Positions 2,738-56,432 of a stretch of 64,000 nucleotides of DNA are shown in pieces. The notes under the pieces were generated by a model, which was given only the letters and a program-made list of their open reading frames with translations, made no database searches and had not been told where the DNA came from. Positions within the stretch are counted from its first letter, which is position 1; each line of letters begins with the position of its first letter. The DNA is from Eledone cirrhosa (taxonomy: Eukaryota). Where the stretch lies: the NCBI GenBank assembly GCA_964016885.1, contig CAXHJY010000422.1, forward strand, positions 1 through 64,000, read 5' to 3'. Made by a program: the position numbers and the translations under genes.

Positions 2738-3098
<361 letters not shown>

Positions 3099-5394: not shown

Positions 5395-5600
5395 AGGGTC
5401 AGAGTAAAGACCACCTTCAGTTACCAATGACCATGTGGTTTACACCTAGGAAGTTCTCCTGCGAGGCACAAGTCCTGGCAAGGTTGTTTGTGGAAGACCA
5501 GCAGTCACCTATACGTACCAGTCTCCCCTCTTCCCCACCACCAATGTTGTCCAAACAAAAGGTTATGGTTGATACGGCTTGGTACCAGTGACACCGCAAT
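5395..5600 (-). mobile_element. SINE 3' body fragment (same subfamily as the SINE hosting the 45-bp satellite)
   Basis: 5544-5600 (atgttgtccaa...gcttggtaccagtga...caat) aligns with 10117-10173. Confidence 0.55.
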
Positions 5601-6545
5601 ATATTCTATATATACACTCTATACTCTATATATACACTATATATACACTCTATACTCTATATATACACTATATATACACTCGATACACTATATATACACT
5701 CTATACTCTATATATACACTCTATATACACTCTATACTCTATATATACACTATATATACACTCGATACACTATATATACACTATATACTCTATATATACA
5801 CTATATATACACTCGATACACTATATATACACTCTATATACACTCGATACACTATATATACACTCTATACTCTATATATACACTCTATACTCTATATATA
5901 CACTCTATACTCTATATATACACTCTATATACACTCGATACACTATATATACACTATATATACACTCTATACTCTATATATACACTATATATACACTCGA
6001 TACACTATATATACACTCTATACTCTATATATACACTCTATATACACTCTATACTCTATATATACACTCTATATACACTCGATACACTATATATACACTC
6101 TATACTCTATATATACACTCTATACTCTATATTCTATATATACATTCTATACTCTATATATACACTCTATAATCTATATATACACTCTATACTCTAGATA
6201 TACACTCTATACTTTATATATACACTTTATATTCTATATATACACTATATATACACTATATACTCTATATATACACTATATATACACTCTATACTCTATA
6301 TATACACTTTATATTCTATATATACACTATATATACACTCTATACTCTATATATACACTCTATACTCTATATATACACTATATACACTATATACTCTATA
6401 TATACACTCTATACTCTATATATACACTATATATACACTCTATATTCTATATATACACTCTATATTCTATATATACACTATATATACACTCTATACTCTA
6501 TATATACACTATATACTCTATATATATACTCTATATTCTATATAT
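5601..6545. repeat. Degenerate (TATATACAC/TATACTC)n simple repeat
   Basis: Direct reading; the same repeat resumes at 9975-10113 after the LINE. Confidence 0.9.
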
Positions 6546-9500: not shown

Positions 9501-9975
9501 AGCATCAGTTATTAGATGCCGAGACACTGCATCCATTAAAATGTCCATGGAACAAACTACCAGCATCAGTTGTTAGCTGTCGAGACACTGCATCCTTTAA
9601 AACCTCCATGGAACAAACTCCCTGCATCAGTTGTTAGCTGTCGAGAGACTGCATCCTTTAAAACCTCCAATGAACAAACTACCAGCATCAGTTATTAGAT
9701 GCCGAGACACTGCATCCTTTAAAACCCCCATGGAACACACTCCCTGCATCAGTTGTTAACTGTCAAGACACTGCATCCTTCAAAACCTCCATGCTTCCCA
9801 AAATTCGTCAATACTACACCTAATATTCCTCCTCCATACACATACACACATGTATATCATGACTCATGCACTGATCATTTTCCTGACGTTTGTACATTAC
9901 CCTATGTACTATACATACACTTTTGATGAGTTGAAGTTCACCTGAGCACTACACAATATTTTCATTATTATATTA
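6546..9975 (+). mobile_element. Degenerate 5'-truncated CR1-like LINE (partial APE endonuclease + RT), with stops and frameshifts
   Basis: EN motifs GDFKHP, PTRGDNTLDL, SDHAMI; SPGLDG; YADD codons at about 8157; CR1-type C-terminus TRGH...RVAEAWNKLP; (ATT)n tail at about 9964; paralogous to 54575-57805. Confidence 0.9.
8876..9793 (+). repeat. 61-bp tandem array (15 copies) amplified from the LINE ORF2 C-terminus
   Basis: atgg at 8876, 8937, 8998; LINE sequence resumes atgcttccc at 9791; single-copy counterpart at about 57586-57650. Confidence 0.93.
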
Positions 9976-10188
9976 TATACACTATATATATACTATATAT
10001 ATACACTATATATATACTATATATGCACTCTATACTCTATATATACACTATATATACACTACACTCTATATACACACTATATATACACTCTATACTCTAT
10101 ATATACACTCTATATGATGTTGTCCAAGGGAAAGGCAATGGCCAATACAGCTTGGCACCAGTGATGTCACAATTCTACAGCTGCGTAA

Positions 10189-13100
10189 ACTGGAGCAATG
10201 TGAAATGGAGTGTCTTGCTCAAGGACACAGTGGACTGGAGTAATGTGAAATAAAGTGTCTTGCTGAAGGACACAATGGACTGGAGCAACGTGAAATAAAG
10301 TGTCTTACTCAAGGACACAATGGACTGGAGCAACGTGTAATAAAGTGTCTTGCTGAAGGACACAATGGACTGGAGCAATGTGTAATAAAGTGTCTTGCTG
10401 AAGGACACAGTGGACTGGAGCAACGTGTAATAAAGTGTCTTGCTGAAGGACACAATGGACTGGAGCAACATGTAATAAAGTGTCTTGCTGAAGGACACAA
10501 TGGACTGGAGCAACATGTAATAAAGTGTCTTGCTGAAGGACACAGTGGACTGGAGCAACGTGTAATAAAGTGTCTTGCTCAAGGACACAATGGACTGGAG
10601 CAATGTGTAATAAAGTGTCTTGCTGAAGGACACAGTGGACTGGAGCAACGTGTAATAAAGTGTCTTGCTGAAGGACACAATGGACTGGAGCAACATGTAA
10701 TAAAGTGTCTTGCTGAAGGACACAGTGGACTGGAGCAACGTGTAATAAAGTGTCTTGCTCAAGGACACAATGGACTGGAGCAACGTGTAATAAAGTGTCT
10801 TGCTGAAGGACACAGTGGACTGGAGCAACGTGTAATAAAGTGTCTTGCTCAAGGACACAATGGACTGGAGCAACGTGAAGTAAAGTGTCTTGCTGAAGGA
10901 CACAGTGGACTGGAGCAACGTGTAATAAAGTGTCTTGCTGAAGGACACAGTGGACTGGAGCAACATGTAATAAAGTGTCTTGCTGAAGGACACAATGGAC
11001 TGGAGCAACGGGAAATAAAGTGTCTTGCTGAAGGACACAATGGACTGGAGCAACATGTAATAAAGTGTCTTGCTGAAGGACACAATGGACTGGAGCAACA
11101 TGTAATAAAGTGTCTTGCTGAAGGACACAGTGGACTGGAGCAACGTGTAATAAAGTGTCTTGCTGAAGGACACAATGGACTGGAGCAACATGTAATAAAG
11201 TGTCTTGCTGAAGGACACAGTGGACTGGAGCAACGTGTAATAAAGTGTCTTGCTCAAGGACACAATGGACTGGAGCAACATGTAATAGAGTGTCTTGCTG
11301 AAGGACACAATGGACTGGAGCAACATGTAATAAAGTGTCTTGCTAAAGGACACAATGGACTGGAGCAACATGTAATAAAGTGTCTTGCTGAAGGACACAA
11401 TGGACTGGAGCAACATGTAATAAAGTGTCTTGCTAAAGGACACAATGGACTGGAGCAACATGTAATAAAGTGTCTTGCTGAAGGACACAATGGACTGGAG
11501 CAACATGTAATAAAGTGTCTTGCTAAAGGACACAATGGACTGGAGCAACATGTAATAAAGTGTCTTGCTGAAGGACACAATGGACTGGAGCAACATGTAA
11601 TAAAGTGTCTTGCTGAAGGACACAATGGACTGGAGCAACATGTAATAAAGTGTCTTGCTCAAGGACACAATGGACTGGAGCAACGTGTAATAAAGTGTCT
11701 TGCTCAAGGACACAATGGACTGGAGCAACGTGTAATAAAGTGTCTTGCTCAAGGACACAATGGACTGGAGCAACATGTAATAAAGTGTCTTGCTAAAGGA
11801 CACAATGGACTGGAGCAACATGTAATAAAGTGTCTTGCTGAAGGACACAATGGACTGGAGCAACATGTAATAAAGTGTCTTGCTGAAGGACACAATGGAC
11901 TGGAGCAACATGTAATAAAGTGTCTTGCTAAAGGACACAGTGGACTGGAGCAACATGTAATAAAGTGTCTTGCTAAAGGACACAATGGACTGGAGCAACG
12001 TGTAATAAAGTGTCTTGCTCAAGGACACAATGGACTGGAGCAACGTGTAATAAAGTGTCTTGCTGAAGGACACAATGGACTGGAGCAACATGTAATAAAG
12101 TGTCTTGCTAAAGGACACAATGGACTGGAGCAACGTGTAATAGAGTGTCTTGCTGAAGGACACAGTGGACTGGAGCAACGTGAAATAAAGTGTCTTGCTC
12201 AAGGACACAATGGACTGGAGCAACGTGTAATAAAGTGTCTTGCTGAAGGACACAGTGGACTGGAGCAACGTGAAGTAAAGTGACTTGCTAAAGGACACAA
12301 TGGACTGGAGCAACATGTAATAAAGTGTCTTGCTGAAGGACACAGTGGACTGGAGCAACGTGTAATAAAGTGTCTTGCTGAAGGACACAATGGACTGGAG
12401 CAACATGTAATAAAGTGTCTTGCTAAAGGACACAATGGACTGGAGCAACGTGTAATAAAGTGTCTTGCTCAAGGACACAATGGACTGGAGCAACGTGTAA
12501 TAAAGTGTCTTGCTGAAGGACACAATGGACTGGAGCAACATGTAATAAAGTGTCTTGCTAAAGGACACAGTGGACTGGAGCAACATGTAATAAAGTGTCT
12601 TGCTAAAGGACACAATGGACTGGAGCAACGTGTAATAAAGTGTCTTGCTGAAGGACACAATGGACTGGAGCAACATGTAATAAAGTGTCTTGCTGAAGGA
12701 CACAATGGACTGGAGCAACATGTAATAAAGTGTCTTGCTAAAGGACACAATGGACTGGAGCAACATGTAATAAAGTGTCTTGCTGAAGGACACAATGGAC
12801 TGGAGCAACATGTAATAAAGTGTCTTGCTAAAGGACACAGTGGACTGGAGCAACATGTAATAAAGTGTCTTGCTAAAGGACACAATGGACTGGAGCAACG
12901 TGTAATAAAGTGTCTTGCTCAAGGACACAATGGACTGGAGCAACATGTAATAAAGTGTCTTGCTGAAGGACACAATGGACTGGAGCAACATGTAATAAAG
13001 TGTCTTGCTAAAGGACACAGTGGACTGGAGCAACATGTAATAAAGTGTCTTGCTAAAGGACACAATGGACTGGAGCAACGTGTAATAAAGTGTCTTGCTC

Positions 13101-16100
13101 AAGGACACAATGGACTGGAGCAACATGTAATAAAGTGTCTTGCTAAAGGACACAATGGACTGGAGCAACGTGTAATAAAGTGTCTTGCTGAAGGACACAA
13201 TGGACTGGAGCAACGTGTAATAAAGTGTCTTGCTCAAGGACACAATGGACTGGAGCAACATGTAATAAAGTGTCTTGCTAAAGGACACAATGGACTGGAG
13301 CAACGTGTAATAAAGTGTCTTGCTGAAGGACACAATGGACTGGAGCAACATGTAATAAAGTGTCTTGTTGAAGGACACAATTGACTGGAGCAACGTGTAA
13401 TAAAGTGTCTTGCTCAAGGACACAGTGGACTGGAGCAACGTGAAATAAAGTGTCTTGCTCAAGGACACAATTGACTGGAGCAACGTGTAATAAAGTGTCT
13501 TGCTCAAGGACACAATGGACTGGAGCAACGTGTAATAAAGTGTCTTGCTCAAGGACACAATGGACTGGAGCAACGTGTAATAAAGTGTCTTGCTCAAGGA
13601 CACAATGGACTGGAGCAACGTGTAATAAAGTGTCTTGCTGAAGGACACAATGGACTGGAGCAACGTGTAATAAAGTGTCTTGCTCAAGGACACAGTGGAC
13701 TGGAGCAACGTGAAATAAAGTGTCTTGCTCAAGGACACAATGGACTGGAGCAACGTGTAATAAAGTGTCTTGCTGAAGGACACAATGGACTGGAGCAACA
13801 TGTAATAAAGTGTCTTGTTGAAGGACACAGTGGACTGCAGCAACATGTAATAAAGTGTCTTGCTGAAGGACACAATGGACTGGAGCAACGTGTAATAAAG
13901 TGTCTTGCTGAAGGACACAATGGACTGGAGCAATGTGTAATAAAGTGTCTTGTTGAAGGACACAGTGGACTGGAGCAACATGTAATAAAGTGTCTTGTTG
14001 AAGGACACAATGGACTGGAGCAACGTGTAATAGAGTGTCTTGCTGAAGGACACAGTGGACTGGAGCAACATGTAATAAAGTGTCTTGCTGAAGGACACAG
14101 TGGACTGGAGCAACGTGTAATAAAGTGTCTTGCTGAAGGACACAATGGACTGGAGCAACGTGTAATAAAGTGTCTTGTTGAAGGACACAGTGGACTGGAG
14201 CAACGTGTAATAAAGTGTCTTGCTGAAGGACACAGTGGACTGGAGCAACGTGTAATAAAGTGTCTTGCTGAAGGACACAGTGGACTGGAGCAACGTGTAA
14301 TAAAGTGTCTTGTTGAAGGACACAGTGGACTGGAGCAACGTGTAATAAAGTGTCTTGCTGAAGGACACAGTGGACTGGAGCAACATGTAATAGAGTGTCT
14401 TGCTGAAGGACACAGTGGACTGGAGCAACGTGTAATAAAGTGTCTTGCTGAAGGACACAGTGGACTGGAGCAACGTGTAATAAAGTGTCTTGTTGAAGGA
14501 CACAGTGGACTGGAGCAACGTGTAATAAAGTGTCTTGCTGAAGGACACAGTGGACTGGAGCAACATGTAATAGAGTGTCTTGCTGAAGGACACAGTGGAC
14601 TGGAGCAACGTGTAATAGAGTGTCTTGTTGAAGGACACAGTGGACTGGAGCAACGTGTAATAGAGTGTCTTGTTGAAGGACACAGTGGACTGGAGCAACG
14701 TGTAATAAAGTGTCTTGCTGAAGGACACAGTGGACTGGAGCAACATGTAATAGAGTGTCTTGCTGAAGGACACAGTGGACTGGAGCAACATGTAATAAAG
14801 TGTCTTGTTGAAGGACACAATGGACTGGAGCAACGTGTAATAGAGTGTCTTGCTGAAGGACACAGTAGACTGGAGCAACGTGTAATAAAGTGTCTTGCTG
14901 AAGGACACAATGGACTGGAGCAACGTGTAATAAAGTGTCTTGTTGAAGGACACAGTGGACTGGAGCAACGTGTAATAGAGTGTCTTGTTGAAGGACACAG
15001 TGGACTGGAGCAACGTGTAATAGAGTGTCTTGCTGAAGGACACAGTGGACTGGAGCAACGTGTAATAAAGTGTCTTGCTGAAGGACACAGTGGACTGGAG
15101 CAACGTGTAATAAAGTGTCTTGCTGAAGGACACAGTGGACTGGAGCAACGTGTAATAAAGTGTCTTGCTGAAGGACACAGTGGACTGGAGCAACGTGTAA
15201 TAGAGTGTCTTGCTGAAGGACACAATGGACTGGAGCAACGTGTAATAAAGTGTCTTGCTGAAGGACACAATGGACTGGAGCAACGTGTAATAAAGTGTCT
15301 TGCTGAAGGACACAGTGGACTGGAGCAACGTGTAATAAAGTGTCTTGCTGAAGGACACAGTGGACTGGAGCAACGTGTAATAGAGTGTCTTGCTGAAGGA
15401 CACAGTGGACTGGAGCAACGTGTAATAAAGTGTCTTGCTGAAGGACACAGTGGACTGGAGCAACGTGTAATAAAGTGTCTTGCTGAAGGACACAGTGGAC
15501 TGGAGCAACGTGTAATAAAGTGTCTTGCTAAAGGACACAATGGACTGGAGCAACATGTAATAAAGTGTCTTGCTGAAGGACACAATGGACTGGAGCAACA
15601 TGTAATAAAGTGTCTTGCTAAAGGACACAATGGACTGGAGCAACATGTAATAAAGTGTCTTGCTGAAGGACACAATGGACTGGAGCAACATGTAATAAAG
15701 TGTCTTGCTGATGGACACAATGGACTGGAGCAACATGTAATAAAGTGTCTTGCTCAAGGACACGATGGACTGGAGCAACGTGTAATAAAGTGTCTTGCTC
15801 AAGGACACAATGGACTGGAGCAACATGTAATAAAGTGTCTTGCTAAAGGACACAATGGACTGGAGCAACGTGTAATAAAGTGTCTTGCTCAAGGACACAA
15901 TGGACTGGAGCAACATGTAATAAAGTGTCTTGCTAAAGGACACAATGGACTGGAGCAACATGTAATAAAGTGTCTTGCTGAAGGACACAATGGACTGGAG
16001 CAACATGTAATAAAGTGTCTTGCTGAAGGACACAATGGACTGGAGCAACATGTAATAAAGTGTCTTGCTAAAGGACACAGTGGACTGGAGCAACATGTAA

Positions 16101-19100
16101 TAAAGTGTCTTGCTAAAGGACACAATGGACTGGAGCAACGTGTAATAAAGTGTCTTGCTCAAGGACACAATGGACTGGAGCAACGTGTAATAAAGTGTCT
16201 TGCTGAAGGACACAATGGACTGGAGCAACATGTAATAAAGTGTCTTGCTAAAGGACACAATGGACTGGAGCAACGTGTAATAGAGTGTCTTGCTGAAGGA
16301 CACAGTGGACTGGAGCAACGTGAAATAAAGTGTCTTGCTCAAGGACACAATGGACTGGAGCAACGTGTAATAAAGTGTCTTGCTGAAGGACACAGTGGAC
16401 TGGAGCAACGTGAAGTAAAGTGACTTGCTAAAGGACACAATGGACTGGAGCAACATGTAATAAAGTGTCTTGCTGAAGGACACAGTGGACTGGAGCAACG
16501 TGTAATAAAGTGTCTTGCTGAAGGACACAATGGACTGGAGCAACATGTAATAAAGTGTCTTGCTAAAGGACACAATGGACTGGAGCAACGTGTAATAAAG
16601 TGTCTTGCTCAAGGACACAATGGACTGGAGCAACGTGTAATAAAGTGTCTTGCTGAAGGACACAATGGACTGGAGCAACATGTAATAAAGTGTCTTGCTA
16701 AAGGACACAGTGGACTGGAGCAACATGTAATAAAGTGTCTTGCTAAAGGACACAATGGACTGGAGCAACGTGTAATAAAGTGTCTTGCTGAAGGACACAA
16801 TGGACTGGAGCAACATGTAATAAAGTGTCTTGCTGAAGGACACAATGGACTGGAGCAACATGTAATAAAGTGTCTTGCTAAAGGACACAATGGACTGGAG
16901 CAACATGTAATAAAGTGTCTTGCTGAAGGACACAATGGACTGGAGCAACATGTAATAAAGTGTCTTGCTAAAGGACACAGTGGACTGGAGCAACATGTAA
17001 TAAAGTGTCTTGCTAAAGGACACAATGGACTGGAGCAACGTGTAATAAAGTGTCTTGCTGAAGGACACAGTGGACTGGAGCAACGTGTAATAAAGTGTCT
17101 TGCTGAAGGACACAATGGACTGGAGCAACATGTAATAAAGTGTCTTGCTGAAGGACACAGTGGACTGGAGCAACGTGTAATAAAGTGTCTTGCTCAAGGA
17201 CACAATGGACTGGAGCAACGTGTAATAAAGTGTCTTGCTGAAGGACACAGTGGACTGGAGCAACGTGTAATAAAGTGTCTTGCTCAAGGACACAATGGAC
17301 TGGAGCAACGTGAAGTAAAGTGTCTTGCTGAAGGACACAGTGGACTGGAGCAACGTGTAATAAAGTGTCTTGCTGAAGGACACAGTGGACTGGAGCAACA
17401 TGTAATAAAGTGTCTTGCTGAAGGACACAATGGACTGGAGCAACGGGAAATAAAGTGTCTTGCTGAAGGACACAATGGACTGGAGCAACATGTAATAAAG
17501 TGTCTTGCTGAAGGACACAATGGACTGGAGCAACATGTAATAAAGTGTCTTGCTGAAGGACACAGTGGACTGGAGCAACGTGTAATAAAGTGTCTTGCTG
17601 AAGGACACAATGGACTGGAGCAACATGTAATAAAGTGTCTTGCTGAAGGACACAGTGGACTGGAGCAACGTGTAATAAAGTGTCTTGCTCAAGGACACAA
17701 TGGACTGGAGCAACATGTAATAGAGTGTCTTGCTGAAGGACACAATGGACTGGAGCAACATGTAATAAAGTGTCTTGCTAAAGGACACAATGGACTGGAG
17801 CAACATGTAATAAAGTGTCTTGCTGAAGGACACAATGGACTGGAGCAACATGTAATAAAGTGTCTTGCTAAAGGACACAATGGACTGGAGCAACATGTAA
17901 TAAAGTGTCTTGCTGAAGGACACAATGGACTGGAGCAACATGTAATAAAGTGTCTTGCTAAAGGACACAATGGACTGGAGCAACATGTAATAAAGTGTCT
18001 TGCTGAAGGACACAATGGACTGGAGCAACATGTAATAAAGTGTCTTGCTGAAGGACACAATGGACTGGAGCAACATGTAATAAAGTGTCTTGCTCAAGGA
18101 CACAATGGACTGGAGCAACGTGTAATAAAGTGTCTTGCTCAAGGACACAATGGACTGGAGCAACATGTAATAAAGTGTCTTGCTAAAGGACACAATGGAC
18201 TGGAGCAACGTGTAATAAAGTGTCTTGCTCAAGGACACAATGGACTGGAGCAACATGTAATAAAGTGTCTTGCTAAAGGACACAATGGACTGGAGCAACA
18301 TGTAATAAAGTGTCTTGCTGAAGGACACAATGGACTGGAGCAACATGTAATAAAGTGTCTTGCTGAAGGACACAATGGACTGGAGCAACATGTAATAAAG
18401 TGTCTTGCTAAAGGACACAGTGGACTGGAGCAACATGTAATAAAGTGTCTTGCTAAAGGACACAATGGACTGGAGCAACGTGTAATAAAGTGTCTTGCTC
18501 AAGGACACAATGGACTGGAGCAACGTGTAATAAAGTGTCTTGCTGAAGGACACAATGGACTGGAGCAACATGTAATAAAGTGTCTTGCTAAAGGACACAA
18601 TGGACTGGAGCAACGTGTAATAGAGTGTCTTGCTGAAGGACACAGTGGACTGGAGCAACGTGAAATAAAGTGTCTTGCTCAAGGACACAATGGACTGGAG
18701 CAACGTGTAATAAAGTGTCTTGCTGAAGGACACAGTGGACTGGAGCAACGTGAAGTAAAGTGACTTGCTAAAGGACACAATGGACTGGAGCAACATGTAA
18801 TAAAGTGTCTTGCTGAAGGACACAGTGGACTGGAGCAACGTGTAATAAAGTGTCTTGCTGAAGGACACAATGGACTGGAGCAACATGTAATAAAGTGTCT
18901 TGCTAAAGGACACAATGGACTGGAGCAACGTGTAATAAAGTGTCTTGCTCAAGGACACAATGGACTGGAGCAACGTGTAATAAAGTGTCTTGCTGAAGGA
19001 CACAATGGACTGGAGCAACATGTAATAAAGTGTCTTGCTAAAGGACACAGTGGACTGGAGCAACATGTAATAAAGTGTCTTGCTAAAGGACACAATGGAC

Positions 19101-22100
19101 TGGAGCAACGTGTAATAAAGTGTCTTGCTGAAGGACACAATGGACTGGAGCAACATGTAATAAAGTGTCTTGCTGAAGGACACAATGGACTGGAGCAACA
19201 TGTAATAAAGTGTCTTGCTAAAGGACACAATGGACTGGAGCAACATGTAATAAAGTGTCTTGCTGAAGGACACAATGGACTGGAGCAACATGTAATAAAG
19301 TGTCTTGCTAAAGGACACAGTGGACTGGAGCAACATGTAATAAAGTGTCTTGCTAAAGGACACAATGGACTGGAGCAACGTGTAATAAAGTGTCTTGCTC
19401 AAGGACACAATGGACTGGAGCAACATGTAATAAAGTGTCTTGCTGAAGGACACAATGGACTGGAGCAACATGTAATAAAGTGTCTTGCTAAAGGACACAG
19501 TGGACTGGAGCAACATGTAATAAAGTGTCTTGCTAAAGGACACAATGGACTGGAGCAACGTGTAATAAAGTGTCTTGCTCAAGGACACAATGGACTGGAG
19601 CAACATGTAATAAAGTGTCTTGCTAAAGGACACAATGGACTGGAGCAACGTGTAATAAAGTGTCTTGCTGAAGGACACAATGGACTGGAGCAACGTGTAA
19701 TAAAGTGTCTTGCTCAAGGACACAATGGACTGGAGCAACATGTAATAAAGTGTCTTGCTAAAGGACACAATGGACTGGAGCAACGTGTAATAAAGTGTCT
19801 TGCTGAAGGACACAATGGACTGGAGCAACATGTAATAAAGTGTCTTGTTGAAGGACACAATTGACTGGAGCAACGTGTAATAAAGTGTCTTGCTCAAGGA
19901 CACAGTGGACTGGAGCAACGTGAAATAAAGTGTCTTGCTCAAGGACACAATTGACTGGAGCAACGTGTAATAAAGTGTCTTGCTCAAGGACACAATGGAC
20001 TGGAGCAACGTGTAATAAAGTGTCTTGCTCAAGGACACAATGGACTGGAGCAACGTGTAATAAAGTGTCTTGCTCAAGGACACAATGGACTGGAGCAACG
20101 TGTAATAAAGTGTCTTGCTGAAGGACACAATGGACTGGAGCAACGTGTAATAAAGTGTCTTGCTCAAGGACACAGTGGACTGGAGCAACGTGAAATAAAG
20201 TGTCTTGCTCAAGGACACAATGGACTGGAGCAACGTGTAATAAAGTGTCTTGCTGAAGGACACAATGGACTGGAGCAACATGTAATAAAGTGTCTTGTTG
20301 AAGGACACAGTGGACTGCAGCAACATGTAATAAAGTGTCTTGCTGAAGGACACAATGGACTGGAGCAACGTGTAATAAAGTGTCTTGCTGAAGGACACAA
20401 TGGACTGGAGCAATGTGTAATAAAGTGTCTTGTTGAAGGACACAGTGGACTGGAGCAACATGTAATAAAGTGTCTTGTTGAAGGACACAATGGACTGGAG
20501 CAACGTGTAATAGAGTGTCTTGCTGAAGGACACAGTGGACTGGAGCAACATGTAATAAAGTGTCTTGCTGAAGGACACAGTGGACTGGAGCAACGTGTAA
20601 TAAAGTGTCTTGCTGAAGGACACAATGGACTGGAGCAACGTGTAATAAAGTGTCTTGTTGAAGGACACAGTGGACTGGAGCAACGTGTAATAAAGTGTCT
20701 TGCTGAAGGACACAGTGGACTGGAGCAACGTGTAATAAAGTGTCTTGCTGAAGGACACAGTGGACTGGAGCAACGTGTAATAAAGTGTCTTGTTGAAGGA
20801 CACAGTGGACTGGAGCAACGTGTAATAAAGTGTCTTGCTGAAGGACACAGTGGACTGGAGCAACATGTAATAGAGTGTCTTGCTGAAGGACACAGTGGAC
20901 TGGAGCAACGTGTAATAAAGTGTCTTGCTGAAGGACACAGTGGACTGGAGCAACGTGTAATAAAGTGTCTTGTTGAAGGACACAGTGGACTGGAGCAACG
21001 TGTAATAAAGTGTCTTGCTGAAGGACACAGTGGACTGGAGCAACATGTAATAGAGTGTCTTGCTGAAGGACACAGTGGACTGGAGCAACGTGTAATAGAG
21101 TGTCTTGTTGAAGGACACAGTGGACTGGAGCAACGTGTAATAGAGTGTCTTGTTGAAGGACACAGTGGACTGGAGCAACGTGTAATAAAGTGTCTTGCTG
21201 AAGGACACAGTGGACTGGAGCAACATGTAATAGAGTGTCTTGCTGAAGGACACAGTGGACTGGAGCAACATGTAATAAAGTGTCTTGTTGAAGGACACAA
21301 TGGACTGGAGCAACGTGTAATAGAGTGTCTTGCTGAAGGACACAGTGGACTGGAGCAACGTGTAATAAAGTGTCTTGCTGAAGGACACAATGGACTGGAG
21401 CAACGTGTAATAAAGTGTCTTGTTGAAGGACACAGTGGACTGGAGCAACGTGTAATAGAGTGTATTGTTGAAGGACACAGTGGACTGGAGCAACGTGTAA
21501 TAGAGTGTCTTGCTGAAGGACACAGTGGACTGGAGCAACGTGTAATAAAGTGTCTTGCTGAAGGACACAGTGGACTGGAGCAACGTGTAATAAAGTGTCT
21601 TGCTGAAGGACACAGTGGACTGGAGCAACGTGTAATAAAGTGTCTTGCTGAAGGACACAGTGGACTGGAGCAACGTGTAATAGAGTGTCTTGATGAAGGA
21701 CACAATGGACTGGAGCAACGTGTAATAAAGTGTCTTGCTGAAGGACACAATGGACTGGAGCAACGTGTAATAAAGTGTCTTGCTGAAGGACACAGTGGAC
21801 TGGAGCAACGTGTAATAAAGTGTCTTGCTGAAGGACACAGTGGACTGGAGCAACGTGTAATAGAGTGTCTTGCTGAAGGACACAGTGGACTGGAGCAACG
21901 TGTAATAAAGTGTCTTGCTGAAGGACACAGTGGACTGGAGCAACGTGTAATAAAGTGTCTTGCTGAAGGACACAGTGGACTGGAGCAACGTGTAATAAAG
22001 TGTCTTGTTGAAGGACACAGTGGACTGGAGCAACGTGTAATAAAGTGTCTTGCTGAAGGACACAGTGGACTGGAGCAACATGTAATAGAGTGTCTTGCTG

Positions 22101-25100
22101 AAGGACACAGTGGACTGGAGCAACGTGTAATAGAGTGTCTTGTTGAAGGACACAGTGGACTGGAGCAACGTGTAATAGAGTGTCTTGTTGAAGGACACAG
22201 TGGACTGGAGCAACGTGTAATAAAGTGTCTTGCTGAAGGACACAGTGGACTGGAGCAACATGTAATAGAGTGTCTTGCTGAAGGACACAGTGGACTGGAG
22301 CAACATGTAATAAAGTGTCTTGTTGAAGGACACAATGGACTGGAGCAACGTGTAATAGAGTGTCTTGCTGAAGGACACAGTGGACTGGAGCAACGTGTAA
22401 TAAAGTGTCTTGCTGAAGGACACAGTGGACTGGAGCAACGTGTAATAAAGTGTCTTGTTGAAGGACACAGTGGACTGGAGCAACGTGTAATAAAGTGTCT
22501 TGCTGAAGGACACAGTGGACTGGAGCAACGTGTAATAAAGTGTCTTGTTGAAGGACACAGTGGACTGCAGCAACGTGTAATAAAGTGTCTTTCTGAAGGA
22601 CACAGTGGACTGGAGCAACGTGTAATAAAGTGTCTTGCTGAAGGACACAATGGACTGGAGCAACGTGTAATAAAGTGTCTTGTTGAAGGACACAGTGGAC
22701 TGGAGCAACGTGTAATAGAGTGTCTTGTTGAAGGACACAGTGGACTGGAGCAACGTGTAATAGAGTGTCTTGCTGAAGGACACAGTGGACTGGAGCAACG
22801 TGTAATAAAGTGTCTTGCTGAAGGACACAGTGGACTGGAGCAACGTGTAATAAAGTGTCTTGCTGAAGGACACAGTGGACTGGAGCAACGTGTAATAAAG
22901 TGTCTTGCTGAAGGACACAGTGGACTGGAGCAACATGTAATAGAGTGTCTTGCTGAAGGACACAGTGGACTGGAGCAACATGTAATAAAGTGTCTTGTTG
23001 AAGGACACAATGGACTGGAGCAACGTGTAATAGAGTGTCTTGCTGAAGGACACAGTGGACTGGAGCAACGTGTAATAAAGTGTCTTGCTGAAGGACACAG
23101 TGGACTGGAGCAACGTGTAATAAAGTGTCTTGTTGAAGGACACAGTGGACTGGAGCAACGTGTAATAAAGTGTCTTGCTGAAGGACACAATGGACTGGAG
23201 CAACGTGTAATAAAGTGTCTTGTTGAAGGACACAGTGGACTGGAGCAACGTGTAATAGAGTGTCTTGTTGAAGGACACAGTGGACTGGAGCAACGTGTAA
23301 TAGAGTGTCTTGCTGAAGGACACAGTGGACTGGAGCAACGTGTAATAAAGTGTCTTGCTGAAGGACACAGTGGACTGGAGCAACGTGTAATAAAGTGTCT
23401 TGCTGAAGGACACAGTGGACTGGAGCAACGTGTAATAAAGTGTCTTGCTGAAGGACACAGTGGACTGGAGCAACGTGTAATAGAGTGTCTTGCTGAAGGA
23501 CACAATGGACTGGAGCAACGTGTAATAAAGTGTCTTGCTGAAGGACACAATGGACTGGAGCAACGTGTAATAAAGTGTCTTGCTGAAGGACACAGTGGAC
23601 TGGAGCAACGTGTAATAAAGTGTCTTGCTGAAGGACACAGTGGACTGGAGCAACGTGTAATAGAGTGTCTTGCTGAAGGACACAGTGGACTGGAGCAACG
23701 TGTAATAAAGTGTCTTGCTGAAGGACACAGTGGACTGGAGCAACGTGTAATAAAGTGTCTTGCTGAAGGACACAGTGGACTGGAGCAACGTGTAATAAAG
23801 TGTCTTGCTGAAGGACACAGTGGACTGGAGCAACGTGTAATAGAGTGTCTTGCTGAAGGACACAGTGGACTGGAGCAACGTGTAATAAAGTGTCTTGCTG
23901 AAGGACACAGTGGACTGGAGCAACGTGTAATAAAGTGTCTTGCTGAAGGACACAGTGGACTGGAGCAACGTGTAATAAAGTGTCTTGCTGAAGGACACAG
24001 TGGACTGGAGCAACGTGTAATAAAGTGTCTTGCTGAAGGACACAGTGGACTGGAGCAACGTGTAATAGAGTGTCTTGCTGAAGGACACAATGGACTGGAG
24101 CAACGTGTAATAAAGTGTCTTGCTGAAGGACACAATGGACTGGAGCAACATGTAATAAAGTGTCTTGCTGAAGGACACAGTGGACTGGAGCAACGTGTAA
24201 TAAAGTGTCTTGCTGAAGGACACAATGGACTGGAGCAACGTGTAATAAAGTGTCTTGTTGAAGGACACAGTGGACTGGAGCAACGTGTAATAGAGTGTCT
24301 TGTTGAAGGACACAGTGGACTGGAGCAACGTGTAATAGAGTGTCTTGCTGAAGGACACAGTGGACTGGAGCAACGTGTAATAAAGTGTCTTGCTGAAGGA
24401 CACAGTGGACTGGAGCAACGTGTAATAGAGTGTCTTGTTGAAGGACACAGTGGACTGGAGCAACGTGTAATAAAGTGTCTTGCTGAAGGACACAATGGAC
24501 TGGAGCAACGTGTAATAAAGTGTCTTGTTGAAGGACACAGTGGACTGGAGCAACGTGTAATAAAGTGTCTTGCTGAAGGACACAGTGGAGTGGAGCAACG
24601 TGTAATAAAGTGTCTTGCTGAAGGACACAATGGACTGGAGCAACGTGTAATAAAGTGTCTTGCTGAAGGACACAGTGGACTGGAGCAACGTGTAATAGAG
24701 TGTCTTGTTGAAGGACACAGTGGACTGGAGCAACGTGTAATAAAGTGTCTTGTTGAAGGACACAGTGGACTGGAGCAACGTGTAATAGAGTGTCTTGTTG
24801 AAGGACACAGTGGACTGGAGCAACGTGTAATAGAGTGTCTTGCTGAAGGACACAGTGGACTGGAGCAACGTGTAATAGAGTGTCTTGCTGAAGGACACAG
24901 TGGACTGGAGCAACGTGTAATAGAGTGTCTTGTTGAAGGACACAGTGGACTGGAGCAACGTGTAATAAAGTGTCTTGCTGAAGGACACAGTGGACTGGAG
25001 CAACGTGTAATAGAGTGTCTTGCTGAAGGACACAATGGACTGGAGCAACGTGTAATAAAGTGTCTTGCTGAAGGACACAGTGGACTGGAGCAACGTGTAA

Positions 25101-28100
25101 TAGAGTGTCTTGTTGAAGGACACAGTGGACTGGAGCAACGTGTAATAAAGTGTCTTGCTGAAGGACACAGTGGACTGGAGCAACGTGTAATAAAGTGTCT
25201 TGCTGAAGGACACAGTTGACTGGAGCAACGTGTAATAGAGTGTCTTGTTGAAGGACACAGTGGACTGGAGCAACGTGTAATAAAGTGTCTTGTTGAAGGA
25301 CACAGTGGACTGGAGCAACGTGTAATACAGTGTCTTGCTGAAGGACACAGTGGACTGGAGCAACGTGTAATAGAGTGTCTTGCTGAAGGACACAATGGAC
25401 TGGAGCAACGTGTAATAAAGTGTCTTGCTGAAGGACACAGTGGACTGGAGCAACGTGTAATAGAGTGTCTTGCTGAAGGACACAATGGACTGGAGCAACG
25501 TGTAATAAAGTGTCTTGCTGAAGGACACAGTGGACTGGAGCAACGTGTAATAGAGTGTCTTGTTGAAGGACACAGTGGACTGGAGCAACGTGTAATAAAG
25601 TGTCTTGCTGAAGGACACAGTGGACTGGAGCAACGTGTAATAGAGTGTCTTGTTGAAGGACACAGTGGACTGGAGCAACGTGTAATAAAGTGTCTTGTTG
25701 AAGGACACAGTGGACTGGAGCAACGTGTAATAGAGTGTCTTGCTGAAGGACACAATGGACTGGAGCAACGTGTAATAAAGTGTCTTGTTGAAGGACACAG
25801 TGGACTGGAGCAACGTGTAATAAAGTGTCTTGCTGAAGGACACAGTGGACTGGAGCAACATGTAATAGAGTGTCTTGCTGAAGGACACAGTGGACTGGAG
25901 CAACGTGTAATAGAGTGTCTTGTTGAAGGACACAGTGGACTGGAGCAACGTGTAATAGAGTGTCTTGCTGAAGGACACAATGGACTGGAGCAACGTGTAA
26001 TAAAGTGTCTTGCTGAAGGACACAGTGGACTGGAGCAACGTGTAATAAAGTGTCTTGCTGAAGGACACAGTGGACTGGAGCAACGTGTAATAGAGTGTCT
26101 TGTTGAAGGACACAGTGGACTGGAGCAACGTGTAATAAAGTGTCTTGTTGAAGGACACAGTGGACTGGAGCAACGTGTAATAGAGTGTCTTGCTGAAGGA
26201 CACAATGGACTGGAGCAACGTGTAATAAAGTGTCTTGTTGAAGGACACAGTGGACTGGAGCAACATGTAATAAAGTGTCTTGTTGAAGGACACAGTGGAC
26301 TGGAGCAACGTGTAATAAAGTGTCTTGCTGAAGGACACAATGGACTGGAGCAACGTGTAATAAAGTGTCTTGCTGAAGGACACAGTGGACTGGAGCAACG
26401 TGTAATAGAGTGTCTTGCTGAAGGACACAGTGGACTGGAGCAACGTGTAATAGAGTGTCTTGCTGAAGGACACAGTGGACTGGAGCAACGTGTAATAGAG
26501 TGTCTTGCTGAAGGACACAGTGGACTGGAGCAACGTGTAATAGAGTGTCTTGCTGAAGGACACAGTGGACTGGAGCAACGTGTAATAGAGTGTCTTGCTG
26601 AAGGACACAGTGGACTGGAGCAACGTGTAATAGAGTGTCTTGTTGAAGGACACAGTGGACTGGAGCAACGTGTAATAAAGTGTCTTGCTGAAGGACACAG
26701 TGGACTGGAGCAACGTGTAATAAAGTGTCTTGCTAAAGGACACAATGGACTGGAGCAACATGTAATAAAGTGTCTTGCTGAAGGACACAGTGGACTGGAG
26801 CAACATGTAATAAAGTGTCTTGCTGAAGGACACAGTGGACTGCAGCAACGTGTAATAAAGTGTCTTGCTGAAGGACACAGTGGACTGGAGCAATGTGTAA
26901 TAAAGTGTCTTGCTGAAGGACACAATGGACTGGAGCAACATGTAATAAAGTGTCTTGCTGAAGGACACAGTGGACTGGAGCAACATGTAATAAAGTGTCT
27001 TGTTGAAGGACACAGTGGACTGGAGCAATGTGTAATAAAGTGTCTTGTTGAAGGACACAGTGGACTGGAGCAATGTGTAATAAAGTGTCTTGCTGAAGGA
27101 CACAGTGGACTGGAGCAACGTGTAATAGAGTGTCTTGCTGAAGGACACAGTGGACTGGAGCAACATGTAATAAAGTGTCTTGCTCAAGGACACAATGGAC
27201 TGGAGCAACATGTAATAAAGTGTCTTGCTGAAGGACACAGTGGACTGGAGCAACATGTAATAAAGTGTCTTGTTGAAGGACACAGTGGACTGGAGCAATG
27301 TGTAATAAAGTGTCTTGTTGAAGGACACAGTGGACTGGAGCAATGTGTAATAAAGTGTCTTGCTGAAGGACACAGTGGACTGGAGCAACATGTAATAAAG
27401 TGTCTTGCTGAAGGACACAGTGGACTGGAGCAACATGTAATAAAGTGTCTTGTTGAAGGACACAGTGGACTGGAGCAATGTGTAATAAAGTGTCTTGTTG
27501 AAGGACACAGTGGATTGGAGCAATGTGTAATAAAGTGTCTTGCTGAAGGACACAGTGGACTGGAGCAATGTGTAATAAAGTGTCTTGCTGAAGGACACAG
27601 TGGACTGGAGCAACATGTAATAAAGTGTCTTGCACAATGACACAGTGGACTGGAGCAACGTGTAATAAAGTGTCTTGCTGAAGGACACAGTGGACTGGAG
27701 CAATGTGTAATAAAGTGTCTTGCTGAAGGACACAGTGGACTGGAGCAATGTGTAATAAAGTGTCTTGCTGAAGGACACAGTGGACTGGAGCAATGTGTAA
27801 TAAAGTGTCTTGCTCAAGGACACAGTGGACTGGAGCAACGTGTAATAAAGTGTCTTGCTGAAGGACACAGTGGACTGGAGCAACATGTAATAAAGTGTCT
27901 TGCACAATGACACAGTGGACTGGAGCAACGTGTAATAAAGTGTCTTGCTGAAGGACACAGTGGACTGGAGCAACATGTAATAAAGTGTCTTGCACAATGA
28001 CACAGTGGACTGGAGCAACGTGTAATAAAGTGTCTTGCTGAAGGACACAGTGGACTGGAGCAACATGTAATAAAGTGTCTTGCACAATGACACAGTGGAC

Positions 28101-31100
28101 TGGAGCAACGTGTAATAAAGTGTCTTGCTGAAGGACACAGTGGACTGGAGCAACGTGTAATAAAGTGTCTTGCTGAAGGACACAATGGACTGGAGCAACG
28201 TGTAATAAAGTGTCTTGCTGAAGGACACAGTGGACTGGAGCAACGTGAAGTAAAGTGTCTTGCTCAAGGACACAGTGGGCTGGAGCAACGTGAAATAAAG
28301 TGTCTTGCTGAAGGACACAGTGGACTGGAGCAACGTGAAGTAAAGTGTCTTGCTCAAGGACACAATGGACTGGAGCAACATGTAATAAAGTGTCTTGCTC
28401 AAGGACACAGTGGACTGGAGCAACGTGTAATAAAGTGTCTTGCTGAAGGACACAGTGGACTGGAGCAACGTGAAATAAAGTGTCTTGCTCAAGGACACAG
28501 TGGACTGCAGCAACGTGTAATAAAGTGTCTTGCTGAAGGACACAATGGACTGGAGCAACGTGTAATAAAGTGTCTTGCTGAAGGACACAGTGGACTGGAG
28601 CAACGTGTAATAAAGTGTCTTGCTGAAGGACACAGTGGACTGGAGCAACGTGAAGTAAAGTGTCTTGCTGAAGGACACAGTGGACTGGAGCAACGTGAAG
28701 TATAGTGTCTTGCTCAAGGACACAATGGACTGGAGCAACATGTAATAAAGTGTCTTGCTGAAGGACACAGTGGACTGGAGCAACATGTAATAAAGTGTCT
28801 TGCTGAAGGACACAATGGACTGGAGCAATGTGAAATAAAGTGTCTTGCTGAAGGACACAATGGACTGGAGCAACGTGAAGTAAAGTGTCTTGCTCAAGGA
28901 CACAATGGACTGGAGCAACGTGAAGTAAAGTGTCTTGCTCAAGGGCACAGTGGACTGGAGCAACGTGTAATAAAGTGTCTTGCTGAAGGACACAATGGAC
29001 TGGAGCAACGTGAAGTAAAGTGTCTTGCTCAAGGACACAGTGGACTGGAGCAACGTGTAATAAAGTGTCTTGCTGAAGGACACAATGGACTGGAGCAACG
29101 TGAAGTAAAGTGTCTTGCTGAAGGACACAGTGGACTGGAGCAACGTGTAATAAAGTGTCTTGCTGAAGGACACAATGGACTGGAGCAACGTGAAGTAAAG
29201 TGTCTTGCTGAAGGACACAGTGGACTGGAGCAACGTGTAATAAAGTGTCTTGCTGAAGGACACAGTGGACTGGAGCAACGTGTAATAAAGTGTCTTTCTG
29301 AAGGACACAATGGACTGGAGCAACGTGTAATAAAGTGTCTTGCTGAAGGACACAGTGGACTGGAGCAACATGTAATAGAGTGTCTTGCTGAAGGACACAG
29401 TGGACTGGAGCAACGTGTAATAAAGTGTCTTTCTGAAGGACACAATGGACTTGAGCAACGTGTAATAAAGTGTCTTGCTCAAGGACACAGTGGACTGGAG
29501 CAATGTGTAATAAAGTGTCTTGCTGAAGGACACAATGGACTGGAGCAACATGTAATAAAGTGTCTTGCTGAAGGACACAATGGACTGGAGCAACGTGTAA
29601 TAAAGTGTCTTGCTGAAGGACACAATGGACTGGAGCAACGTGTAATAAAGTGTCTTTCTGAAGGACACAATGGACTGGAGCAACATGTAATAAAGTGTCT
29701 TGCTCAAGGACACAATGGACTGGAGCAACGTGTAATAAAGTGTCTTTCTGAAGGACACAATGGACTGGAGCAACATGTAATAGAGTGTCTTGCTGAAGGA
29801 CACAATGGACTGGAGCAACGTGTAATAAAGTGTCTTTCTGAAGGACACAATGGACTGGAGCAACGTGTAATAAAGTGTCTTTCTGAAGGACACAGTGGAC
29901 TGGAGCAACATGTAATAGAGTGTCTTGCTGAAGGACACAATGGACTGGAGCAACGTGTAATAAAGTCTCTTGCTGAAGGACACAATGGACTGGAGCAACG
30001 TGAAGTAAAGTGTCTTGCTGAAGGACACAGTGGACTGGAGCAACGTGTAATAAAGTGTCTTGCTGAAGGACACAATGGACTGGAGCAACGTGAAGTAAAG
30101 TGTCTTGCTGAAGGACACAGTGGACTGGAGCAACGTGTAATAAAGTGTCTTGCTGAAGGACACAATTGACTGGAGCAACGTGTAATAAAGTGTCTTGCTC
30201 AAGGACACAGTGGACTGGAGCAACGTGTAATAAAGTGTCTTGCTCAAGGACACAATGGACTGGAGCAACGTGTAATAAAGTGTCTTGCTGAAGGACACAA
30301 TTGACTGGAGCAACGTGTAATAAAGTGTCTTGCTGAAGGACACAATTGACTGGAGCAACGTGTAATAAAGTGTCTTGCTGAAGGACACAATTGACTGGAG
30401 CAACGTGTAATAAAGTGTCTTGCTCAAGGACACAATTGACTGGAGCAACGTGTAATAAAGTGTCTTGCTGAAGGACACAATTGACTGGAGCAACGTGTAA
30501 TAAAGTGTCTTGCTCAAGGACACAGTGGACTGGAGCAACGTGTAATAAAGTGTCTTGCTCAAGGACACAATGGACTGGAGCAACGTGTAATAAAGTCTCT
30601 TGCTGAAGGACACAATGGACTGGAGCAACATGTAATAAAGTGTCTTGCTCAAGGACACAATGGACTGGAGCAACGTGTAATAAAGTGTCTTGCTGAAGGA
30701 CACAATTGACTGGAGCAACATGTAATAAAGTGTCTTGCTGAAGGACACAATTGACTGGAGCAACGTGTAATAAAGTGTCTTGCTGAAGGACACAATTGAC
30801 TGGAGCAACGTGTAATAAAGTGTCTTGCTCAAGGACACAATTGACTGGAGCAACGTGTAATAAAGTGTCTTGCTCAAGGACACAATTGACTGGAGCAACG
30901 TGTAATAAAGTGTCTTGCTGAAGGACACAATTGACTGGAGCAACGTGTAATAAAGTGTCTTGCTGAAGGACACAATTGACTGGAGCAACGTGTAATAAAG
31001 TGTCTTGCTCAAGGACACAATTGACTGGAGCAACGTGTAATAAAGTGTCTTGCTGAAGGACACAATTGACTGGAGCAACGTGTAATAAAGTGTCTTGCTC

Positions 31101-32685
31101 AAGGACACAATTGACTGGAGCAACGTGTAATAAAGTGTCTTGCTCAAGGACACAATTGACTGGAGCAACGTGTAATAAAGTGTCTTGCTGAAGGACACAA
31201 TTGACTGGAGCAACGTGTAATAAAGTGTCTTGCTCAAGGACACAATGGACTGGAGCAACATGTAATAAAGTGTCTTGCTGAAGGACACAATTGACTGGAG
31301 CAACGTGTAATAAAGTGTCTTGCTGAAGGACACAATTGACTGGAGCAACGTGTAATAAAGTGTCTTGCTCAAGGACACAGTGGACTGGAGCAACGTGTAA
31401 TAAAGTGTCTTGCTCAAGGACACAATGGACTGGAGCAACGTGTAATAAAGTGTCTTGCTCAAGGACACAATGGACTGGAGCAACGTGTAATAAAGTGTCT
31501 TGCTCAAGGACACAATTGACTGGAGCAACATGTAATAAAGTGTCTTGCTGAAGGACACAATTGACTGGAGCAACGTGTAATAAAGTGTCTTGCTGAAGGA
31601 CACAATTGACTGGAGCAACGTGTAATAAAGTGTCTTGCTCAAGGACACAATTGACTGGAGCAACATGTAATAAAGTGTCTTGCTGAAGGACACAATTGAC
31701 TGGAGCAACGTGTAATAAAGTGTCTTGCTCAAGGACACAATTGACTGGAGCAACGTGTAATAAAGTGTCTTGCTCAAGGACACAGTGGACTGGAGCAACG
31801 TGTAATAAAGTGTCTTGCTCAAGGACACAATGGACTGGAGCAACGTGTAATAAAGTGTCTTGCTCAAGGACACAATGGACTGGAGCAACGTGTAATAAAG
31901 TGTCTTGCTGAAGGACACAATTGACTGGAGCAACGTGTAATAAAGTGTCTTGCTGAAGGACACAATTGACTGGAGCAACGTGTAATAAAGTGTCTTGCTC
32001 AAGGACACAATGGACTGGAGCAACGTGTAATAAAGTGTCTTGCTCAAGGACACAGTGGACTGGAGCAACGTGTAATAAAGTGTCTTGCTGAAGGACACAA
32101 TTGACTGGAGCAACGTGTAATAAAGTGTCTTGCTCAAGGACACAGTGGACTGGAGCAACGTGTAATAAAGTGTCTTGCTGAAGGACACAATTGACTGGAG
32201 CAACGTGTAATAAAGTGTCTTGCTGAAGGACACAATTGACTGGAGCAACGTGTAATAAAGTGTCTTGCTCAAGGACACAATGGACTGGAGCAACGTGTAA
32301 TAAAGTGTCTTGCTGAAGGACACAATTGACTGGAGCAACGTGTAATAAAGTGTCTTGCTCAAGGACACAGTGGACTGGAGCAACGTGTAATAAAGTGTCT
32401 TGCTGAAGGACACAATTGACTGGAGCAACGTGTAATAAAGTGTCTTGCTGAAGGACACAATTGACTGGAGCAACGTGTAATAAAGTGTCTTGCTCAAGGA
32501 CACAATGGACTGGAGCAACGTGTAATAAAGTGTCTTGCTCAAGGACACAGTGGACTGGAGCAACGTGTAATAAAGTGTCTTGCTCAAGGACACAATTGAC
32601 TGGAGCAACGTGTAATAAAGTGTCTTGCTCAAGGACACAGTGGACTGGAGCAACGTGTAATAAAGTGTCTTGCTGAAGGACACAA
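10189..32685. repeat. 45-bp satellite, about 500 copies
   Basis: Unit actggagcaacgtgtaataaagtgtcttgctgaaggacacartgg; length/45 is about 500; the uninterrupted 7502-codon minus frame shows no frameshifting indels. Confidence 0.98.
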
Positions 32686-32702
32686 CACAAGGCTCAGTCT
32701 GA

Positions 32703-32756
32703 GAATCGAACTGACAACCTCACAATTGTAAACCCGATGCTGTAACCATTGAGCCA
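32703..32756 (-). promoter_or_regulatory. Type-2 RNA Pol III internal promoter (A and B boxes) of the SINE head, pointing into the satellite
   Basis: Minus strand A box TGGCTCAATGG (32756-32746) and B box GTTCGATTC (32711-32703) match consensus. Confidence 0.7.
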
Positions 32757-32769
32757 TGTTGTGCCTTCA

Positions 32770-32783
32770 CATATATATAAACA

Positions 32784-33163: not shown

Positions 33164-33477
33164 GGAGGCACATGGCTTAGTGGTTAGAGCATTGGCCTTG
33201 CAATCGAAAGGTTGTGAGTTCAATTCTCAGACCGGGTGATGTGTTGTTTCCTTGAGCAAGACACTTTATTTCACATTGCTCCAGTTTACTCAGCTGTAGA
33301 AATGAGATGCCAGGGACTGGGGACCCTATCATTCCACTGCAAAAAAGCACCCAGCACTCACTGTAAATGAGGTTGGTGTTAGGAAGGGCATCCAGCTGTA
33401 GAGATGGAGCCAGAATCAGTTCCCGTCCCACCCTTGCAAGCAGGGAAAAGTGGACGTGAAATGATGATGATGATGAT
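33164..33477 (+). mobile_element. Full-length tRNA-derived SINE with RTE-derived 3' tail
   Basis: A box TGGCTTAGTGG 33173-33183, B box GTTCAATTC about 33218, central ccttgagcaagacacttt, tail ggttggtgttaggaagggcatcca shared with the RTE 3' UTR (about 4640), ends (ATG)n; possible TSD atacctg. Confidence 0.88.
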
Positions 33478-34024
33478 ACCTGTGTATCCATGTGTATTTA
33501 TGCCTGTTTGTGTGTCTGTGCTTGTTTAGGTATGTATGTGTTAAGCAAAGGTAATCAGGTGTATATACATATACACCTGCAATGTATATATACATCCTCA
33601 ACAGAACCCCCCCCCTCAATGTGTGACCAATGTGTGTGTGTGTGGGGGGGGTACAATAAGGGCAATGCCACTCACCTGTCGTGCAATCTTTCCACGTGAC
33701 TGCACACCCTAAGTGCAGTGTGTGCTGCATGCAACAGTTATCTCCTCCTCCATTAATACACAGGGTTTCATGGAAATATGTGTCTGGCAGTACAACTGTT
33801 GGTTGTTAGACATTGTTTTGGGGAGGGGTGATGGTGGTGTTGTGGTGGTGTAGGTGGTGGTACAGGTAGTGGTGTAGGTGGTGGTACAGGTGGTGGTACA
33901 GGTGGTGTAGGTGGTGGTACAGGTGGTGGTACAGGTGGTGGTACAGGTGTGTTAATGAAGTGAACATGATCACATTTATAATATTTCTCTAGTTACTACA
34001 ATAACACTTGGACTGATACTACAT

Positions 34025-46371: not shown

Positions 46372-46703
46372 GGAGGCACATGGCTTAGTGGTTAGAGCAT
46401 TGGCTTTTCAATCGAAAGGTTGTGAGTTCAATTCTCAGACCGGGTGATGTGTTGTTTCCTTGAGCAAGACACTTTATTTCACATTGCTCCAGTTTACTCA
46501 GCTGTAGAAATGAGATGATAGGGACTGGGGTTCCTATCATTCCACTGCAAAGTGGTCGTGGATGTGCCACGACAAAAAAGCACCCAGTACTCACTGTAAA
46601 TGAGGTTGGTGTTAGGAAGGGCATCCAGCTGTAGAAATCAAGCCAGAATCAGTTCCCATCCCACCCTTGCAAGCAGGGAAAAGCGGACGTAAATTGAAAT
46701 GAT
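46372..46703 (+). mobile_element. Full-length tRNA-derived SINE (paralog of 33164-33477)
   Basis: Near-identical head, A/B boxes, central domain and RTE-type tail. Confidence 0.88.
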
Positions 46704-56421: not shown

Positions 56422-56432
56422 AACTAAAATGA

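Follow-up and report, generated by a model that had tools for sequence, protein, structure and literature searches.

A 500-unit satellite from the CORE domain of a SINE in Eledone cirrhosa, with a possible origin in a short internal tandem

SINE-derived satellites (sSat1-3; SINE, short interspersed element) have been described across 56 squamate genomes, with loci of 320, about 950 and over 1,200 units on record (Vassetzky, Kosushkin and Ryskov 2023, PMC10702118). By that source the squamate work is the only systematic survey, and its authors left occurrence elsewhere open. Minisatellites born in Alu, B1 and MaLR elements are also described (Jurka and Gentles 2006; Bois 1998; Kelly 1994; via PMC6947457 and PMC9659126). 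The octopus element OR1 is among the CORE-SINEs, and the 5′ 45 bp of the CORE is the part common to all of them (Nishihara 2016, PMC4824008; PMC4758252 is a further source on CORE context). Here we describe a 22.5-kb array of 45-bp units inside a tRNA-derived SINE in a window of 64,000 nucleotides from Eledone cirrhosa (assembly GCA_964016885.1, contig CAXHJY010000422.1, positions 1 to 64,000 of the forward strand). The locus is a well-preserved SINE-derived satellite and belongs to an already known kind of element. We give a probability of about 0.5 to growth of the array within an old SINE copy of CORE type, starting from a short internal tandem that was likely carried at insertion and spread as a retrotransposed seed. 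No function is implied for the array, and repeat turnover there is likely neutral.

The array lies on the minus strand and consists of 500 units in strict register with zero indels (Table 1). Tandem Repeats Finder called it at 10189-32685 (period 45, 499.9 copies, 95% matches, 0% indels). We observed that 499 of the 500 units were at most five substitutions from the array consensus; the leftmost unit was eight away. Mean identity to the consensus was 96.3%, and units differed pairwise by 5.4% on average. This was below the ~22% found between the head of the array-bearing copy and two other heads, so the units are homogenised beyond the SINE copies. Squamate sSats are recognised by at least four head-to-tail middle monomers, by a unit that is only part of a SINE, and by SINE sequence continuing from the terminal units; a place in subtelomeric or heterochromatic DNA is typical of them but not a strict feature. 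Our array has 498 middle units, its unit is a part of the SINE and shorter than the whole, and SINE sequence continues from both terminal units, as a full head on one side and 71 nt of body on the other.

An earlier sequence-only reading of this DNA had taken the 45-bp monomer for the central domain of the SINE, and our comparison bears this out: a single unit is 93% identical over 44 nt to the cores of the unexpanded copies at 33164 and 46372. We also ran the collapse check. Head, one unit and body, joined by script, aligned in one colinear piece to 46365-46515 (81.8%, 154 nt, E = 5e-39) and to 33170-33307 (82.6%, 138 nt, E = 2e-36). The head of the array-bearing copy was identical to the heads of these two SINEs at 62-63 of 80 aligned positions, and carried a private 3-nt insertion at 32757 that was absent from the contigs of X8, one of four public DNA runs compared below. 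Both A-box and B-box patterns were matched within 32686-32768; ARAGORN called no tRNA genes in the window, the array-copy head included. The same reading placed SINE head and body on either side of the array. Both are there, but the body is colinear with 33164 and 46372 for only ~20 nt; its remainder (10165-10115) matches another tail type, found in a remnant at 5544-5591 (79%, 48 nt). The array-bearing copy has no SINE 3′ end, the body halting at an AT-rich microsatellite at the left junction. Examined for a target-site duplication and a LINE-related 3′ tail (LINE, long interspersed element), both ends of this SINE were found to lie in AT-rich microsatellites.

The SINE family is dispersed: the window has two more full copies as well as several fragments, and each public run has 5,057-25,300 matching records. 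By eye, the unit is identical at 35 of 45 positions to the central domain of BivaCORE-SINE2 (PMC4824008 supplement), and the match extends ~20 nt past the unit into the body. On this comparison the unit begins at the 5′ edge of the CORE domain and covers about its 5′ 45 bp. As a side observation, the tail remnant overlaps the array-copy body by ~55 nt (39 of 53 identical) and may represent the 3′ end that this copy lost. Between remnant and body, on both sides of a LINE, lies one type of AT-rich microsatellite (5599-6548 and 9969-10115), as if the LINE had inserted into a single microsatellite.

Like the squamate sSats, the array has a unit taken from part of a tRNA-SINE and terminal units that continue as SINE (PMC10702118 for this and the following squamate comparisons). 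Long loci are homogeneous in both systems (94% at 320 units in squamates, 94.6% pairwise at 500 units here), and one unit type is found across loci and related species. A minority of squamate loci keep both SINE ends. The sequence-only reading had regarded the architecture here as unusually complete; this does not hold, given those both-end loci and the missing 3′ end of the array-bearing copy. The both-ends form is, however, uncommon in squamates and has several units only, compared to 500 here. The unit also differs: it is 45 bp long, whereas squamate units measure about 70-290 nt; it derives from the CORE domain of an invertebrate SINE and not from Squam1-3; and it contains no promoter box, while the snake unit contains box B.

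Other described systems share fewer features with the array. As in the Alu, B1 and MaLR minisatellites, a short unit has been amplified in a dispersed retroelement and there are many loci because the element is abundant, but those arrays begin from flanking direct repeats of 5-10 bp, compared to 1 nt of microhomology at the unit boundary here, and are mostly far shorter (PMC6947457, PMC9659126). The order of tRNA head and CORE central domain is that of CORE-SINEs such as OR1 and BivaCORE-SINE2, judged by the by-eye match (PMC4824008). Mollusc SINEs of conserved-domain superfamilies occur in tandem in bivalves also, as 2-15 whole elements and not as hundreds of internal segments (PMC11481361). 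We found no cephalopod or CORE-derived satellite in the literature searched, which left most subscription papers, Repbase and Dfam outside. What is new here is a CORE-derived, apparently lineage-limited satellite family in a host that is probably an octopus.

To describe letter states, we numbered positions 1-45 within the unit and read the states of the SINE family from depth in the four public runs. The family carries 28T at 96-99% of depth in all four runs and 11G at 78-94%. Because of this, the array-majority letters 28A and 11C are derived. The family has 32A, a CpG-decay state, at 19-50% of depth, and 19 of the 500 units share it. The sequence-only reading held that the leftmost monomers keep an ancestral tgtgaaat. 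This is correct in that 28T is the family state; however, 28T occurs in 31 units spread along the array, and 32A is a minority or 50:50 state in the family.

The last (leftmost) unit sets itself apart from the interior at three positions. Interior units have 32G, 43C and 44C, whereas the last unit and both unexpanded copies have 32A, 43T and 44T; 43T and 44T occur together in only one of the 500 units. The leftmost unit differs from the unexpanded copies at four positions and the array consensus does so at six. A plain slip within the array-bearing copy would have placed 43T/44T at every junction. Their absence from interior junctions indicates either that a two-unit seed joined different cores or that the interior was imported. 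With 1 nt of microhomology, repeated independent birth at the same base appears unlikely.

We then compared public runs X1, X4, X8 and X23 (the last a restriction-site-associated DNA, or RAD, library) with the reference 32611-32775, which spans the head, a single unit and 30 nt of the following one. Of 16,998 contig records, the sample comprised 24, the longest eight each from X1, X4 and X8. In this sample the unit junction was crossed over 69-76 nt with 4-9 differences by 6 of 8 records in X1 and 8 of 8 in X4, which are contigs of two studies (organisms A and B). None of the eight X8 records crossed it, those pieces being at most 59 nt. The unexpanded SINEs mismatch the junction reference at 26-27 positions on the same 71 nt, which shows that the crossing contigs are true tandems. 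At least 31 letters lay on both sides of the junction in 5 of the 14 crossing records. Six of the 14 (two in X1, four in X4; 269-452 nt long, depth 7-19) reached the last bases of the head at 32686-32689 and then ran for 190-350 nt unlike the array locus, at single-copy depth. Because of these flanks, the six records represent SINE copies other than the array locus that bear a head and at least 1.6 units. The unit is thus found at several loci, at least two of them in organism B if pairs of contigs are alleles.

The letters at the junction point the same way. Depth with the junction letter G at 32640, taken relative to core depth, reached 37% in X1, against 8.7% in X4 and 0.05% in X8. Were this array the only source, its unitigs would give A at 32640 in 42% and G at 32630 in 70%; we observed 2.9% and 2.5% in X1, and 2.3% and 20% in X4. 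These values are far from the array-only prediction, which indicates that most junction copies lie elsewhere and are of ancestral type; very roughly, they number thousands. The derived 11C letter was present in 33 junction-crossing contigs in X1, 55 in X4 and none in X8. Organism E shows almost no crossings, and the junction-bearing family is apparently limited to a young lineage that includes organisms A and B but not E. The runs of A and B, the best of those compared, contained 0.43-0.45 of sampled words of 6550-11000, against 0.08-0.14 for other organisms. Of X6-X20, the comparison took in X8; the others had small shares. No RNA run was among those listed. A 28-nt junction pattern gave no matches in metagenome contigs, a result that is uninformative for an animal repeat.

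Joints that appeared to go back 44 positions were rejected as evidence, since an unexpanded SINE split over the 1.7-unit reference yields the same picture. Separate joints in X1 (32686 to 32651) and X8 (32685 to 32640), in which 2-3 letters intervene, point to further duplications within the SINE core whose periods are not 45.

Variants within the array are patchy. We distinguished at least 58 unit types in regional patches: among the first 50 units 31 carry 44A, 13A and 23C are mid-array, and 11T and 31T lie nearer the left end. The farther apart two units are, the more they differ (1.7-1.9 differences at lags 1-10, 2.4-2.6 at lags 75-250), as local exchange predicts. No short lag stood out (1.73-1.9 differences at lags 1-10), and a regular higher-order repeat was rejected; large block duplications were the only such structure. 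Over ~4.9 kb, blocks B and B′ differ by three substitutions and one unit gap in 108 unit pairs. They share an uninterrupted identical stretch of up to 70 units, where 50 local shuffles gave 4-7, and 94 units (4.2 kb) are identical apart from the unit gap. A smaller nested duplication of ~1.5 kb includes 28 identical units (348-375 as an exact copy of 296-323). The block pattern reflects either two successive unequal exchanges (52 then 144 units), in which case the duplication is recent, or an assembly join of two haplotypes. In folding, units and dimers did not surpass shuffled sequences (z −0.5 to −0.8, with −1.8 for the unexpanded core), and hairpin-driven slippage was rejected as a special cause.

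We propose that the unit-to-unit junction likely arose once, in an ancestor of A and B, when two SINE cores whose 3′ ends were already different were joined out of register. The tandem-bearing SINE would then have spread by retrotransposition, most copies likely keeping few units and some expanding. Transposition of elements with internal tandems is described in reviews as a common route of minisatellite spread (PMC6947457). At the array locus, slippage and unequal exchange would have driven local growth to 500 units. Starting from a two-unit seed, every further slip would copy the junction, so that the interior would inherit the 3′ end of the first unit (32G, 43C, 44C) and the last unit alone would retain 32A, 43T and 44T, which is the pattern observed. 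Local variants such as 1T, 11C and 28A may subsequently have spread patchwise by homogenisation, and kilobase blocks may have been duplicated recently.

Several points weigh against this proposal. A head motif near 32700 is common to copies of the 43T/44T type, and it fits import as well as it fits a chimeric seed. The other junction copies were read over part of their flanks, and a shared subfamily and target-site duplications are predicted for them. No true dimeric SINEs are reported from squamates in the survey cited above (Vassetzky et al., PMC10702118). Nine of the 14 crossing records begin at the reference edge and offer, left of the junction, fewer than 31 letters, and the rule for trimming the ends of contig pieces was inferred from X8. 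In the RAD library, only 222 of 25,300 reads counted at 32640. Summed contig depth is no copy number, and it is the contrast of X1 and X4 with X8 that counts. The head end of the array locus (32761-32775) has depth 0 in X23, X1 and X4, and none of the listed pieces spans 32611-32775, the best run containing 0.45 of the words of 6550-11000. The array locus itself and its length are known from the assembly and remain unconfirmed by reads.

Growth in place is common to the retrotransposed seed and to two other accounts of the origin, import and birth in this copy. An import, the chief alternative, which we regard as somewhat unlikely, would have used an array existing elsewhere as repair template for a break in the core of a one-unit SINE; ectopic gene conversion with out-of-register re-annealing would leave donor units between the recipient's head and body, to expand afterwards. 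The flanks do match 33164 and 46372, which belong to the 43T/44T group, in the head motif and where the body begins, while the interior has the opposite state in 499 of 500 units. Loose-end consensuses at 32644 and 32689 in X23 likewise support flanks of the 43T/44T type, and X1 and X4 hold an abundant pool of ancestral-type donors. Yet the head-bearing crossing contigs, with 7-9 differences in 73-76 nt and single-copy depth, look like aged dispersed copies; the linkage of head type to positions 43/44 comes from the loose-end consensuses alone, whose agreement is 0.5-0.9; and no donor tract was identified. A broader form of import, in which a homing satellite spreads its arrays by ectopic gene conversion into one-unit SINEs without transposition, its unit being the 45-bp sub-domain that CORE-SINEs share, seems to us rather unlikely. 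If it were true, each SINE would be a landing site and the array locus a caught case, with the flanks and last unit of the recipient and the interior of the donor. The sequence-only reading had the satellite born inside this single copy, either, as we frame it, as founder of the family or as one birth among several that happened independently at a shared breakpoint. Its anatomy is simple, with both flanks in register, a neighbouring LINE has what looks like a genuine expansion in place, its unit ends marked by 4-nt CATG repeats, and a long two-unit stage could allow units to diverge. This account would nonetheless require three changes (at 32, 43 and 44) to coincide with known family states, as well as a repeated birth at one base if births were several, which is unlikely given 1 nt of microhomology. 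In X1 and X4 most junction depth is without array-derived letters, the same junction occurs in other head-bearing copies there, and 43T with 44T is confined to one unit. We consider birth in this copy improbable and the least likely of the three. Of the ~500-fold amplification in place, growth between head and body stands; that the first duplication took place in this copy, making the locus a snapshot of birth, is not supported.

Two further accounts concern the assembly. The array may be real and its length inflated, B and B′ being two joined haplotypes and the true allele having ~356 units (16 kb). This affects size only and is compatible with any origin. We think it unlikely, in spite of the near-identity of the blocks and an array length taken from the assembly, as two successive unequal exchanges produce the same pattern. 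The depth of array-type letters in X1 (14,000 at 32630 and 19,000 at 32640, with 11,000-23,000 predicted for such an array at depth 6-13) fits about 500 units but does not separate 356 from 500. That the entire array is an assembly artefact is highly improbable: although the head junction of the array locus is absent from the runs compared, the variety and regional patches of its unit types argue against it, as do junction-crossing contigs in two studies that include the derived 11C letter.

The array is a clear invertebrate, probably octopus, case of a SINE-derived satellite from the CORE domain. With head and body in place, every letter of the array can be polarised. Because the last unit does not match the interior, a single assembly could serve to test by which route the satellite spread, a retrotransposed seed or gene conversion. 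If arrays do home to SINEs, thousands of tandem copies of a 45-bp CORE sub-domain would constitute a natural test of what that domain binds.

Table 1. Coordinates of the array, its SINE flanks and related features in the 64,000-nt window.
Feature	Position	Strand	Remarks
Tandem array, 500 x 45 bp	10186..32685	-	5′ part of SINE CORE domain; variants in regional patches
Terminal array unit	10186..10230	-	letters 11G, 28T, 32A, 43T, 44T as in both unexpanded copies
tRNA-derived SINE head of array copy	32686..32769	-	A-box-like ~32756-32746, B-box-like ~32711-32703
SINE body after array	10115..10185	-	71 nt, cut off at microsatellite; tail type unlike 33164 and 46372
Unexpanded SINE copy	33164..33480	+	single core unit 33244-33288
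Unexpanded SINE copy	46372..46697	+	single core unit 46452-46496
SINE tail remnant	5396..5598	-	tail type that of the array-bearing copy
Block B	17071..21975	-	units 238-346 counted from head; near-exact copy of block B′
Block B′	10636..15495	-	units 382-489; 6,480 bp from block B
Nested smaller duplication	15496..17025	-	units 348-381 copy 296-329
61 bp x 15 array in LINE 3′ end	8875..9793	+	LINE fragment 6549-9968; endonuclease and RVT_1 Pfam matches

The surroundings of the array are rich in tandem repeats, which make up 56% of the window outside it; minisatellites with units of at least 29 bp account for 27%. We used the 61-bp array in the neighbouring LINE, 400 bp from the SINE array, as a control case. 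Both of its flanks are colinear with an unexpanded LINE copy at 56426-57810 and 4-nt CATG repeats bound it, as expected of an in-place expansion. Two expansions inside mobile elements within 400 bp suggest that the setting favours expansion. Two of the seven arrays tested have an unexpanded homologue in the window; for the 60-, 29-, 40-, 65- and 39-bp arrays none was found there (0 of 5, with one 19-nt chance match).

Other minisatellites lie at 1-843, 972-2684, 38968-39364 and 41367-42530 (units of 60, 29, 40/44 and 65 bp); homogeneity in the 65-bp array is 99%, and the 60-bp array has several homopolymer indels. Where the LINE copy near 57810 ends in its (ATT)n tail, an array of 39-bp units (57805-64000, at least 152 copies) begins directly and continues past the end of the window. 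An open frame of 437 codons at 3090-4400 on the plus strand encodes a LINE reverse transcriptase with a PHD-like insert (RVT_1, E = 3e-23), and a second copy lies at about 46990-47700. The best named relatives of the LINE reverse transcriptase are LINE proteins of Hydractinia and Branchiostoma at 47-56%, plus one bacterial-bin record. A (TGTGG)n array of 3.2 kb (49148-52368) faces (CACAC)n at 47704-48779, about 400 bp upstream, in an imperfect inverted arrangement.

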